A stretch of 38,467 nt of DNA from a virus (IMGVR_UViG_2850796239_000007:1-38467); one strand, 5' to 3'; counted from the stretch's first letter, positions 6,103 to 9,633 are shown. Made by a program: numbers and translations. The notes: generated by a model from the sequence alone, not told the origin.

Positions 6103-6162
6103 GGCTGTGTCCCTTAATCATCTGAGCTATAGTAACTGTCTGTTTACACAACATATTGAACT

Positions 6163-6612
6163 ATGGCTCGCTACGACCTTCCCGATGAGGCATGGACCAT
6201 CATCAAGCCCCTGTTACCTCCTGAACCCGCCACACCACGGGCCGGACGCCCATGGGCTGAGCACCGTAAAATCATCAATGGCATGTTCTGGGTGTTATGT
6301 TCCGGTGCACCATGGCGCGATTTACCCGAACGATATGGGTCATGGAAAACTGTTTATAACCGCTTTAACCGATGGTCAAAGTCAGGCGTGATTAATATTA
6401 TTTTCAACAGGTTGCTTTCGCTACTTGATGCAAACGGCTTTATTGACTGGTCTGCCACCGCGCTGGATGGCAGTAATATCCGGGCGCTGAAATGTGCCGC
6501 CGGTGCTCAAAAAAACATCCCGATATCGACGGAGATAATGGGCTGGGTCGCTCTCGCGGCGGTTTTGGCACCAAAATCCATCTGGCAACAGACGGAAGTG
6601 GCCTCCCGTTAA
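6163..6612 (+). CDS. IS5-family transposase OrfA
   Basis: 149 aa, MARYDLPDEAWTIIKPLLPP...; contains A AAA AAC slippery heptamer at about 6511..6517. Confidence 0.8.
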   Translation: MARYDLPDEAWTIIKPLLPPEPATPRAGRPWAEHRKIINGMFWVLCSGAPWRDLPERYGSWKTVYNRFNRWSKSGVINIIFNRLLSLLDANGFIDWSATALDGSNIRALKCAAGAQKNIPISTEIMGWVALAAVLAPKSIWQQTEVASR

Positions 6613-7007
6613 ATATCGTGCTAAGCCCCGGACAAGCTCATGAAAGCCAGTTCGCGCAACGACTTCTGGACGGGATTGGCGTTCAGCGTCAGAACGGCAG
6701 CATGAAACGCCGTGGACATGCGGTACTGGCTGATAAAGCGTATTCAGGGCGCGCATTGCGCAACGAGCTGAAAAATAACGGTATAAAGGCAGTAATCCCC
6801 CGAAAGTCAAATGAGAAAATGGCATCGGATGGACGTGCACAGCTTGATCGTGATGCGTACCGCAATCGTAATGTCGTTGAACGGTGCTTTGGGCGGCTGA
6901 AAGAATATCGCCGCATCGCCACGCGTTACGACAAAACGGCGAGAAATTACCTGGCGATGGTGAAACTGGGCTGCATCCGACTCTTTTATCAACGCTTACG
7001 TAATTAA
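6492..7007 (+). CDS. IS5-family transposase OrfB (DDE domain), -1 frame
   Basis: 171 aa in -1 frame overlapping OrfA. Confidence 0.8.
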   Translation: MCRRCSKKHPDIDGDNGLGRSRGGFGTKIHLATDGSGLPLNIVLSPGQAHESQFAQRLLDGIGVQRQNGSMKRRGHAVLADKAYSGRALRNELKNNGIKAVIPRKSNEKMASDGRAQLDRDAYRNRNVVERCFGRLKEYRRIATRYDKTARNYLAMVKLGCIRLFYQRLRN

Positions 7008-7020
7008 GGGACACAGCCTA

Positions 7021-7170
7021 GCATCCAGTAATCAGGTTAGCGAATTAACAATGTGGGTTAAACGACTGGTCAGTCAACTGAAAAAAGCTAAGCCTGACTG
7101 CAAATTACCGGAGAAGGCGATGGATTACCTGAAGCGAAATGGACTGATAAGCGTGGAGGATGTTTTACGA
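7021..7170 (+). pseudogene. 3' part of small gene interrupted by IS5-family copy 1
   Basis: in-frame continuation of 6013..6102. Confidence 0.45.
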
Positions 7171-7252
7171 TGACCTGGCCTGAAGCATTCACCACGGTAG
7201 GAATTGCAATGGCGGTGGCGCTGGTTGTGTATTCGATTTGCCGCTGGGGGTA
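7169..7252 (+). CDS. possible 27-aa hydrophobic peptide (MTWPEAFTTVGIAMAVALVVYSICRWG)
   Basis: ATGA overlap with upstream ORF stop; very short, unverified. Confidence 0.2.
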
Positions 7253-7259
7253 AGGTAAA

Positions 7260-7278
7260 CCAGCCCCGAACGGGCTGG
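7260..7278. terminator. hairpin CCAGCCC-(CGAAC)-GGGCTGG between convergent genes
   Basis: 7-bp GC-rich stem; U-rich on minus strand side. Confidence 0.4.
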
Positions 7279-7282
7279 TAAT

Positions 7283-7570
7283 TTAAAGAGGTAATTTGAT
7301 GATGGCTGTCAGTGCGCCAACAGCAACGACGAGCATGCCACCAAATCTGACGGTCAGTTGCAGGCTGAGTTTGTCTATTTTTGCATCAAGGGCTGCAATG
7401 TCGTTTTTTAGTTCAGTTCTGACATCATTTAGGTCGCGCTTTGTGGCGACTTCTGCGGCTTCGTGAGAATCTTTCACTGCGGCAGATATAGCGCGCGCCT
7501 GAGCTGCCGGCATTCCTGCGGCTTCCAAGGTTTCGACGAACTTCAGTGTATCAAAATAGACCTGAGCCAT
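7283..7570 (-). CDS. DUF1640-like coiled-coil protein with C-terminal TM helix
   Basis: 95 aa; ATG with AAGGAT SD; family recalled from prophage annotations. Confidence 0.55.
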   Translation of the reverse strand: MAQVYFDTLKFVETLEAAGMPAAQARAISAAVKDSHEAAEVATKRDLNDVRTELKNDIAALDAKIDKLSLQLTVRFGGMLVVAVGALTAIIKLPL

Positions 7571-7657
7571 GTTAAATCCTTCGTTGTTGGGGAATATTGT
7601 TAGTTTAGCCTGTAGTGGCTGTTGACGACAACGTTAATCCGGGGCTATATTCCTCAC

Positions 7658-7735
7658 GCGCCAGCAAAATCTGGCGTCGGGATTGGCGTCCCGGATGTTT
7701 ACGGAGCGATATGAGACGCGTCCGCGTCTTTTTTC
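7658..7735 (+). ncRNA. candidate short terminated RNA (c4/IsrK-like), copy upstream of ORF6N gene 1
   Basis: promoter TTGACG-18-TATATT (7622..7651); hairpins at 7659..7676 and 7677..7692; terminator 7714..7735. Confidence 0.4.
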
Positions 7736-7897
7736 ATATCGTTTGCACAGTCACATTCGCGATTTATGGCGGGCTGTGTGGGGGAGCCGAAAGGCTCGCC
7801 GGTTTCCGTACCCGGTTACGCCAACCCTGCACAGTTCGCCACCAGTTCGATTGGCGTCGTCGGTGGCGATAATTTCCAAATGTACGGAGTTATCGTT
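7736..7897 (+). promoter_or_regulatory. structured leader of ORF6N gene 1
   Basis: GNRA hairpin GAGCC-GAAA-GGCTC 7784..7797; ACGCCAAC site 7818..7825; hairpin TCGCCACC/GGTGGCGA 7846..7869. Confidence 0.5.
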
Positions 7898-8446
7898 ATG
7901 ACCACTCAAATCTCTGTTGAAACTCTCTCCCCGATCGCCCATAACCAGATACCTGTTATTACCACTGAACTTTTGGCGCAGTTGTACGGCACAGAAGCGA
8001 TTCGCATTCAGCAAAATCACGCCAGAAACGCTGAACGTTTTATTGAAGGTAAGCATTTTTATAAGTTAGTGGGCGATGAGCTTAGAGGTATGAAGCACAG
8101 ACTATCTTTAAGCGAGTCTGTGAAAATTGCCCGTAACGTTCGCTCCCTCATTCTCTGGACAGAACGCGGAGCAGCACGTCACGCCAAAATGCTCGAAACC
8201 GATCAGGCGTGGGAAGTATTCGAAAAATTGGAAGACTGCTACTTCAACCAGTACGAGAAAGATCGGGCTACGGGGAAAATGAACATCGATATTCACCTGG
8301 CGATCCGTGATGATAAAACTGCCTTCATCCGAAGTTATGCGCCTGGTCAGCTGGTGACGGTTGAAGAAGCCCTGATGTTGCTTAAATCGCGCGGATGGCT
8401 GGTAATGCCGCGAGATGAACTTGCCGGAAAATTAATGGAGCTTTAA
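7898..8446 (+). CDS. antirepressor-family protein, ORF6N-type N-terminal domain
   Basis: 182 aa from ATG 7898 (MTTQISVETL); paralog of 12010..12567; C-terminal motif shared with Rha protein. Confidence 0.6.
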   Translation: MTTQISVETLSPIAHNQIPVITTELLAQLYGTEAIRIQQNHARNAERFIEGKHFYKLVGDELRGMKHRLSLSESVKIARNVRSLILWTERGAARHAKMLETDQAWEVFEKLEDCYFNQYEKDRATGKMNIDIHLAIRDDKTAFIRSYAPGQLVTVEEALMLLKSRGWLVMPRDELAGKLMEL

Positions 8447-8460
8447 CTGGTTAAATTAGC

Positions 8461-8486
8461 CCCGATATGGGAATTCCCATATCGGG
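8461..8486. repeat. 26-bp perfect palindrome CCCGATATGGGAATTCCCATATCGGG
   Basis: 15 bp downstream of ORF6N gene 1 stop; not followed by a U-run. Confidence 0.5.
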
Positions 8487-8675
8487 AGAACATTACCACC
8501 GGGGATAAAATGATTTGCGGTGAAAGGGAAGTTAAGTAGAATTGCTGCGGGTGCTTGAGGCTATCTGTCTCAGGCATGAACACCAAAAGGCAGATGAGAA
8601 GCCCCAGTTAACATTACGCGTCCTGCAAGACGCTTAACATTAATCTGAGGCCAATTTCATGCTAGGCTGTGTCCC

Positions 8676-9191
8676 TTAATTACGTAAGCGTTGATAAAAG
8701 AGTCGGATGCAGCCCAGTTTCACCATCGCCAGGTAATTTCTCGCCGTTTTGTCGTAACGCGTGGCGATGCGGCGATATTCTTTCAGCCGCCCAAAGCACC
8801 GTTCAACGACATTACGATTGCGGTACGCATCACGATCAAGCTGTGCACGTCCATCCGATGCCATTTTCTCATTTGACTTTCGGGGGATTACTGCCTTTAT
8901 ACCGTTATTTTTCAGCTCGTTGCGCAATGCGCGCCCTGAATACGCTTTATCAGCCAGTACCGCATGTCCACGGCGTTTCATGCTGCCGTTCTGACGCTGA
9001 ACGCCAATCCCGTCCAGAAGTCGTTGCGCGAACTGGCTTTCATGAGCTTGTCCGGGGCTTAGCACGATATTTAACGGGAGGCCACTTCCGTCTGTTGCCA
9101 GATGGATTTTGGTGCCAAAACCGCCGCGAGAGCGACCCAGCCCATTATCTCCGTCGATATCGGGATGTTTTTTTGAGCACCGGCGGCACAT
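8676..9191 (-). CDS. IS5-family transposase OrfB (copy 2)
   Basis: identical 171-aa product. Confidence 0.8.
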   Translation of the reverse strand: MCRRCSKKHPDIDGDNGLGRSRGGFGTKIHLATDGSGLPLNIVLSPGQAHESQFAQRLLDGIGVQRQNGSMKRRGHAVLADKAYSGRALRNELKNNGIKAVIPRKSNEKMASDGRAQLDRDAYRNRNVVERCFGRLKEYRRIATRYDKTARNYLAMVKLGCIRLFYQRLRN

Positions 9192-9520
9192 TTCAGCGCC
9201 CGGATATTACTGCCATCCAGCGCGGTGGCAGACCAGTCAATAAAGCCGTTTGCATCAAGTAGCGAAAGCAACCTGTTGAAAATAATATTAATCACGCCTG
9301 ACTTTGACCATCGGTTAAAGCGGTTATAAACAGTTTTCCATGACCCATATCGTTCGGGTAAATCGCGCCATGGTGCACCGGAACATAACACCCAGAACAT
9401 GCCATTGATGATTTTACGGTGCTCAGCCCATGGGCGTCCGGCCCGTGGTGTGGCGGGTTCAGGAGGTAACAGGGGCTTGATGATGGTCCATGCCTCATCG
9501 GGAAGGTCGTAGCGAGCCAT
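9071..9520 (-). CDS. IS5-family transposase OrfA (copy 2)
   Basis: identical 149-aa product. Confidence 0.8.
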   Translation of the reverse strand: MARYDLPDEAWTIIKPLLPPEPATPRAGRPWAEHRKIINGMFWVLCSGAPWRDLPERYGSWKTVYNRFNRWSKSGVINIIFNRLLSLLDANGFIDWSATALDGSNIRALKCAAGAQKNIPISTEIMGWVALAAVLAPKSIWQQTEVASR

Positions 9521-9633
9521 AGTTCAATATGTTGTGTAAACAGACAGTTACTATAGCTCAGATGATTAAGGGACACAGCCTAGACACATGTAGGTTAGCC
9601 TCTTACGTGCCGGAAGGCAAGGAGAAGCAGGCT

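Follow-up and report, generated by a model that had tools for sequence, protein, structure and literature searches.

IS-driven deletions between homologous copies are typical of Shigella genomes, in which the described cases of IS-mediated deletion and gene inactivation involve several families of insertion sequences (IS), an IS at the joint and an IS interrupting a gene (Hawkey et al. 2020, PMC7373316). A short segment lying between identical IS copies in inverted orientation, with their ends and transposase intact, is also the arrangement found in Tn5 and Tn10. Chromosomal hok loci of Escherichia coli K-12 are said, by Pedersen and Gerdes in 1999, to be flanked or inactivated by IS150 or IS186. 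Finally, control of antirepressor genes by isrK and C4 RNAs is described for the immI system of P1 and P7 and for isrK-anrP of Gifsy-1 (PMC4825925). The locus analyzed here is to be compared with these systems. It lies in a stretch of 38,467 nucleotides of viral origin (IMGVR_UViG_2850796239_000007:1-38467, hereafter ‘the window’), where two identical and inverted copies of the IS5-family element ISSfl7 bracket a segment of about 1.6 kb carrying an ORF6N-type antirepressor module. It is very likely that the pair is a by-product of IS expansion in a decaying prophage and not a functional unit, copy 2 being an insertion and copy 1 a deletion or rearrangement joint.

The initial annotation, which recognized identical inverted IS5-family copies around a segment of about 1.6 kb, is borne out by a repeat search and by base-for-base comparison. 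The search reveals a perfect inverted repeat of 925 nt (6100-7024 versus 8659-9583) with 1634 nt between its arms; the element proper accounts for 916 bp of it, and the extra 9 nt correspond to remnants of the CTAG target and to a ‘CAT’ common to both right ends. Copy 1 (6103-7018, plus strand, with TA at 6101-6102 and 7019-7020) and copy 2 (8665-9580, minus strand, with TA at 8663-8664 and 9581-9582), each of 916 bp, are 100% identical and bracket ~1.64 kb. The terminal inverted repeats are perfect over 16 bp (GGCTGTGTCCCTTAAT; 6103-6118 and 7003-7018 in copy 1). In copy 1, two transposase open reading frames (ORFs) are found on the plus strand, namely orfA (6163-6612; DUF4096, PF13340, E = 1.5e-30) and orfB (6492-7007; DDE_Tnp_1, PF01609, E = 1e-21), and a -1 frameshift predicted on the A7 run at 6509-6515 would fuse them into a 281-aa transposase without a stop; an E. 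coli copy of 99.8% identity is annotated in RefSeq as ‘IS5 family transposase, programmed frameshift’. Full-length identity reaches 99.1-100% with elements annotated ‘IS5-like element ISSfl7 family transposase’ in plasmids of Shigella dysenteriae and Shigella boydii and in a few genomes of E. coli or of the enteroinvasive E. coli (EIEC) type, with up to 36 places in one genome. By these comparisons the element is identifiable as ISSfl7 of the IS5 family, and the likeness to ISSfl7 of Shigella and EIEC extends to identity, domains, frameshift annotation, repeats and TA duplication, only copy 3 of the window (see below) differing by a 1-nt deletion. The literature holds only incidental mentions of ISSfl7.

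Copy 2 is recognizable, by alignment with IS-free relatives, as a simple insertion in a CTAG at codon 2 of mok, with duplication of TA. Removal of the copy together with one TA restores an end-to-end alignment with L001, L002 and L003, where L002 designates the prophage of E. coli RMDEC465, which is free of IS at the ISSfl7 sites, orthologous to the prophage of the window and located at the same chromosomal site. In phage Rac-SA53, both flanks of copy 2 overlap by exactly CTAG, and the annotated mok start codon stands immediately before this tetranucleotide. In the window, the 5′ part of the hok mRNA leader/sok region (8549-8664, plus strand; Rfam sok, RF01794) ends with the mok start codon ATG (8659-8661) and with mok codon 2, CTA (8662-8664), while mok codons 3-19 followed by hok (9583-9789, plus strand, with hok itself at 9634-9789 and 51 aa long) lie beyond the IS; the last ~115 nt of the bracketed segment thus represent the 5′ two-thirds of the leader/sok region. 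Accordingly split, RF01794 scores 48.5 bits for a 5′ part ending at the IS and 18.5 bits for a 3′ part (9581-9639) after it, versus 107 bits for the intact RNA of L002. The Hok protein matches the Hok/Gef family (PF01848, E = 2.6e-23) and shares 98% identity with HokD of L005. Once the IS is removed, 19 mok codons are found upstream of hok, as in plasmid R1, and the locus has the make-up of a hok/sok locus, i.e. a Hok/Gef ORF with an in-frame mok and a sok-type leader.

Copy 2 parts the hok promoter, the 5′ leader (sok-complementary region included) and the mok start from mok codons 3-19 and hok. In plasmid R1, Hok is no longer produced when the mok start codon is mutated, since hok translation requires translation of mok (PMC9841398). 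Because of this dependence, hok/sok would be inactivated by copy 2, which disconnects the addiction module. Two points weigh against such inactivation, namely that it is read from the R1 paradigm and that an ORF from an ATG at 9529, inside the left end of copy 2, reads outward in frame via mok codons 3-19 into hok (9529-9789, 86 aa) and could in principle replace mok translation. If this were true, the ORF would re-couple Hok translation to transcription leaving the IS; the idea that it represents an IS-controlled toxin is barely credible, and a promoter scan for an outward promoter of this ORF returned nothing above chance. As in the hok loci of K-12, the IS lies beside and not inside the hok frame and disconnects the regulatory region, but here the IS is ISSfl7, the insertion point is mok codon 2 and inactivation is the presumed outcome.

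For copy 1, comparison with relatives leads to a different diagnosis. This copy is evidently not a simple insertion and appears to mark an IS-associated deletion or rearrangement joint, since its flanks are non-contiguous in IS-free relatives and the genes that intervene there are absent from the window. Flank A (6019-6102, plus strand) contains the initial 28 codons (MPTYLARVELYNAEPEDYEGLHKYMLSL) of an early-region gene of the Rac type, which has 96 aa in full and is truncated here at CTAG by copy 1. In the IS-free, Rac-like L004 and L005, this gene is not interrupted at the corresponding CTAG but reads on as GATTCAGGAGAACG... to a total of 96 aa (at the DNA level, CTAG|GATTCAGG..., with the continuation A′ being GATTCAGGAGAACGATCC..., CTAGGATTCAGGAGAACGATCC), and is followed downstream by DUF1391, a helix-turn-helix repressor, cro, ydaT and replication genes. 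Flank B (7021-7173, plus strand) contains the last 50 codons and the stop of a nin-region gene whose 5′ part is missing. In L001, the frame is unbroken over the flank B boundary (...AATCCACTAG|CATCCAGTAATC, with the upstream sequence B′ being GCCGACAATCCACTAG), and a tblastn search matches flank B with a protein encoded by phage vB_EcoS-666R9 (residues 120-167 of 167). A Pfam search assigns neither truncated gene to a family. When the two flanks of copy 1, joined by deletion of the IS, are used as a query, none of the 4859 matching E. coli records covers both halves of the joint (0/4859). Removal of copy 1 creates a 78-aa ORF with the appearance of an intact gene, which was considered and rejected, being a chance in-frame chimera of two unrelated genes.

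The spacing between sites A and B in relatives is about 5.5-7 kb. The RMDEC465 prophage has 7.2 kb between the two homology blocks, and the window is collinear with this prophage on both sides but without that stretch; in 666R9, which is a functional phage, the homologues of A and B are ~5.7 kb apart and enclose sieB, the repressor gene, cro, ydaT, O, a DnaC-like gene, ydaW and lygF. Taken over the relatives, the block between A and B carries genes of the sieB/ydfC type, DUF1391, the repressor gene, cro, ydaT, replication genes and several nin genes. A tblastn search of 29 proteins from three relatives against the 38.5-kb window found none of the proteins of the missing block; the only queries to match were three expected ones, namely hok, the DUF1640-like gene and the nin gene, the latter over its final 48 residues.

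The sequence CACTAG occurs at each of the two parental sites, and the immunity/replication block was probably lost via IS-IS recombination or adjacent deletion. By the first route, RecA recombination between two directly oriented copies of ISSfl7, one in each CTAG, would have removed the block; by the second, the block would have disappeared through an IS-mediated adjacent deletion. Either route would leave a single copy still flanked by TA. The pattern is repeated at 2686-3947, where an IS600-like element of the IS3 family replaces ~4.4 kb of the RMDEC465 prophage (DUF1187, the AAA ATPase gene, gam, a copy of ISSso6 and part of recE); this is recognizable as a second IS-bounded deletion and, since it fits the pattern, speaks for IS-driven deletion in the same prophage. 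The situation resembles the Shigella cases in the involvement of several IS families, in the IS found at the joint and in the interruption of a gene by an IS, but the target is a prophage immunity/replication block and not a metabolic gene (PMC7373316). Loss of the block with the repressor gene and cro would lock the element in as a cryptic prophage.

Three considerations weigh against this origin of the joint. The first is that an ISSfl7 intermediate at site A or B was not found in 5426 E. coli genomes, the two-copy route being a reconstruction. The second is that the missing block could sit elsewhere in the genome beside another ISSfl7 copy instead of being deleted, the flanks of copy 1 then resulting from recombination with a distant ISSfl7 by inversion or translocation. 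Related genomes with up to 36 ISSfl7 places would offer the partners, large IS-mediated rearrangements are described for Shigella (PMC7373316), and absence of the block from the whole genome cannot be read from the window by itself. Yet copy 1 has flanks that stem from one and the same prophage and have kept their native relative order and orientation, which is the signature of a simple internal deletion, and several events would be needed to keep flank B and everything rightward of it in native order and orientation; with the analogous IS-bounded gap at 2686-3947 in the same prophage, persistence of the block at a distance is unlikely. The third consideration is that, strictly speaking, the A–B joint might be older than the IS, if an IS-independent, illegitimate deletion at the CACTAG microhomology had been followed by a simple, TA-duplicating insertion of ISSfl7 at the new CTAG. 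The presence of CACTAG at both parental sites and a TA pair exactly as left by a simple insertion agree with such a history, as does the preference of ISSfl7 for CTAG or CTAA, which, with CTAG rare in the window, makes a surviving CTAG a likely target. However, it calls for two independent events at the same 4 bp, while the IS routes explain the joint, the IS and the TA by one mechanism, and no IS-free A–B joint exists among the matching E. coli records mentioned above, making it very unlikely that the joint predates the IS.

Given that copy 1 is best seen as such an IS-associated joint, the TA pairs have to be interpreted with care. The initial annotation considered that they favor two independent insertions, which holds for copy 2 as a simple insertion but not for copy 1, which joins sequences lying kilobases apart in relatives. 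TA is found on both sides of the four ISSfl7 copies examined (4/4), copies 1 and 2 being in CTAG and copy 3, as well as a fourth copy from E. coli CFSAN029787, in CTAA. Duplication of TA is confirmed against an empty site for copies 2 and 3, copy 1 having no empty site. TA flanks do not discriminate between the possible histories because all four copies are TA-flanked and deletion routes also leave TA on each side. The lesson is that, for an IS which always duplicates TA in CTAG or CTAA, ‘direct repeats’ cannot separate a simple insertion from a recombinant joint, and that for such an IS only comparison with the empty site discriminates. Two plain independent insertions are thus scarcely tenable as an account of the pair, the flanks of copy 1 being non-contiguous in relatives.

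CTAG is scarce in the window, with 15 sites versus ~150 expected from base composition, and one-third of them (5/15) arise from ISSfl7 junctions. To the right of copy 1 as well as of copy 2 the flank is TAGCAT, either as a possible sign of a wider target preference or by chance (1 in 64). The CFSAN029787 copy, with an apparent 9-nt match to flank B, was considered as an intermediate and rejected, since it lies between an autotransporter gene and lsrK with the flank TAACAGCC. Copy 3 (27962-28876, plus strand, 915 bp) has lost one C from a C5 run at IS position 695, by which orfB is truncated; it is a simple TA-duplicating insertion in a head/morphogenesis gene whose flanks are contiguous in phage Rac-SA53. 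This copy is direct to copy 1 and inverted to copy 2, so recombination could delete ~22 kb or invert ~19 kb.

The segment between copies 1 and 2 is identifiable, from its conservation in IS-free relatives, as native nin-region DNA in ancestral orientation and not as cargo. Its content had been given as small ORFs, a DUF1640-like gene and an ORF6N gene, which is broadly correct but can be refined, as the small ORF at 7051-7173 is what remains, at the 3′ end, of the larger nin-region gene of flank B and the end of the segment belongs to the hok leader/sok. A small hydrophobic ORF of 27 aa (MTWPEAFTTVGIAMAVALVVYSICRWG; 7170-7253, plus strand) has a start overlapping the preceding stop (ATGA); its region is conserved in L001, L002 and L003, and the ORF matches no Pfam family above threshold. 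It is followed on the minus strand (7283-7570) by a coiled-coil gene of 95 aa, similar to DUF1640/CCDC90, for which the PF07798 match (E = 6.6e-7, 29.8 bits) is below the cut-off of 33.5 bits; between its product and WP_000090004.1, encoded by the IS-free RMDEC465 prophage, identity is 100%. The regulatory leader of antirepressor module 1 (7622-7846, plus strand) was delineated with Rfam and a scan for promoters and terminators. It comprises a promoter-like site (7622-7651), c4 a1/b1 targets (7645-7697), an isrK-like RNA with a terminator (7658-7734) and a C4-like antisense RNA (7762-7846), all on the plus strand, and Rfam families RF03163, RF01394 and RF01695 score there above their gathering score. 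The ORF6N-domain gene that follows (7898-8446, plus strand, 182 aa; PF10543, E = 2e-20) would encode the putative antirepressor of module 1.

In L001, L002 and L003, which are all IS-free, the ORF6N gene is followed by hok on one strand, and homologues of 540-549 nt annotated ‘ORF6N domain-containing protein’ occupy the same position in IS-free prophages. In L002, the ORF6N gene is also immediately preceded by the identical DUF1640-like gene, which lies on the opposite strand, and Rfam finds isrK, C4 and a1/b1 elements in front of the ORF6N gene, as in the window. The block formed by the DUF1640-like gene (minus strand), the isrK-C4-ORF6N module (plus strand) and hok (plus strand) is thus found, likewise placed and oriented, in prophages and phages that are free of IS. 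These comparisons run counter to the proposal that the IS pair explains an extra antirepressor module, module 1 being in the same place in IS-free prophages, including the RMDEC465 ortholog. The module missing from this ortholog is in fact module 2, after the Q-like gene (11631-12565), and ~91 nt are found there instead; module 2 consists of isrK/C4/a1b1 elements and the ORF6N gene at 12010-12567, with no IS beside it. The idea of an antirepressor module brought by the IS pair is corrected accordingly. As in P1/P7 immI and in the isrK-anrP module of Gifsy-1, a1/b1 targets, an isrK-like RNA and a C4-like RNA stand upstream of an antirepressor-type gene, but in the window the gene is of the ORF6N type, its regulation and antirepressor activity are predicted, and the module is unrelated to the IS pair. 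Three leaders of the isrK/C4 type occur in this one prophage, at 4775-5617 (minus strand), 7645-7846 (plus strand) and 11760-11958 (plus strand). All three stand before genes of the antirepressor type, namely a Rha/Ash-type gene (4775-5617) and the two ORF6N genes, and the Rha-linked leader is inverted relative to both ORF6N leaders.

That the inverted pair is a composite or invertible unit which delivered this ‘extra’ module is equally hard to sustain. The identical inverted copies do bracket the module, both are TA-flanked, and in each the left end, with its inverted repeat intact, faces outward, so that with an intact transposase a unit resembling Tn5 or Tn10 is formally possible. However, prophages and phages free of IS have the module and its neighbors where the window has them and in the same orientation, and the inner right flank (C) is contiguous with the outer right flank (D) in IS-free relatives, while the outer flanks A and D are contiguous nowhere. 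Insertion of a composite unit is ruled out because C is contiguous with D and because the outer flank A continues into other DNA in relatives. Likewise, the complete IS-segment-IS unit is absent from 5,426 E. coli genomes and 72,556 plasmids, no record covering ≥80% of it in these collections, which do not include Shigella chromosomes. Tn5 and Tn10 are therefore like the window in having two identical inverted IS with intact ends and transposase and a short segment in between. Here, however, the segment is native and its right end runs directly into the outer flank in relatives with an empty site; the outer ends show no target duplication over an unoccupied site, and no other locus with the unit was found in these collections.

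Inversion of the native segment is a separate matter. With identical inverted repeats of 916 bp at a distance of 1.6 kb, occasional recombination that flips the segment would be expected, and an inversion of the RecA type is physically plausible from the sequence arrangement. The orientation present in the window is the ancestral one. The diagnostic joint of the flipped form would be ...GGGACACAGCC-TAG-CATGAAATTGGCCTCAG together with its partner. For either IS-flank junction, no place in the E. coli genomes covers ≥80% of the query and none was found in the plasmid collection; a scan of genome contigs for the right IS end followed by TAGCAT returned only unrelated IS relatives (from Serratia, Symbiopectobacterium and others), and two scans of metagenomes found no junctions; a relative possessing the two copies was not among the results of any of these searches. 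By the geometry of the sequence, a flip would swap the inner junctions only and would leave the IS-hok and A-IS junctions unchanged; it would have no obvious regulatory consequence or function. Pfam detects no recombinase domain in the ORFs of the segment, and neither a dedicated invertase nor a promoter switch is apparent on this basis. That the pair acts as a flip cassette, or as a mobilizable composite equipped with an isrK/C4-regulated ORF6N antirepressor, the hok promoter and sok, is highly improbable.

The window itself represents a lambdoid prophage of the Rac-like kind, located at the yebY/ryeA-ryeB site in an E. coli genome which is rich in IS and of the Shigella/EIEC type. Rfam matches to ryeA/ryeB lie at 463-607 and the gene of a tyrosine integrase at 735-1811. 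In the RMDEC465 prophage of E. coli, which adjoins yebY and is collinear with the window, the integrase gene has the same length (1077 nt). Identity with this prophage is 92-98% over 1-2685, 3948-5826, 7168-7854, 10371-11630, 12566-13761 and 15208-16174 and about 86-87% over 7913-8652 and 9584-10010, while the morphogenesis genes are 97-98% identical to those of phage Rac-SA53. The IS load amounts to at least nine copies or fragments from several families per 38 kb. Besides ISSfl7 and the IS600-like element, it includes two IS110-family copies (13762-15207 and 23492-24940, both on the minus strand), which are simple insertions with respect to RMDEC465 or Rac-SA53, and, from ~33.4 kb to the end of the window, an IS3-family fragment, then IS2 (orfB at 35824-36729) and a further IS3-family element that is cut off there. 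This load and the distribution of ISSfl7 jointly point to a host of the Shigella or EIEC type.

In terms of what is already known, ISSfl7 is doing known things here (interruption of a gene, a deletion joint and incidental inverted repeats), and the locus is a case of ordinary IS-driven prophage decay. It has little wider importance but, as a worked example, makes clear how a prophage is dismantled by the expansion of IS.

Several minor features of the prophage deserve mention. The chromosomal pair of small RNAs SraC/RyeA and SdsR/RyeB is located just outside the integrase gene, and RalA, the antitoxin small RNA of the RalR/RalA system of Rac, is detected by Rfam inside the prophage at 2169-2347. 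At the other end, homology with the tail genes of Rac-SA53 ends at 33428 and the remainder to 38467 is IS material, with inverted repeats of 504 and 71 nt between 33780-34347 and 37290-37858. Downstream of antirepressor module 2, a cluster of four tRNA genes is found at 12775-13082, in common with the RMDEC465 prophage.

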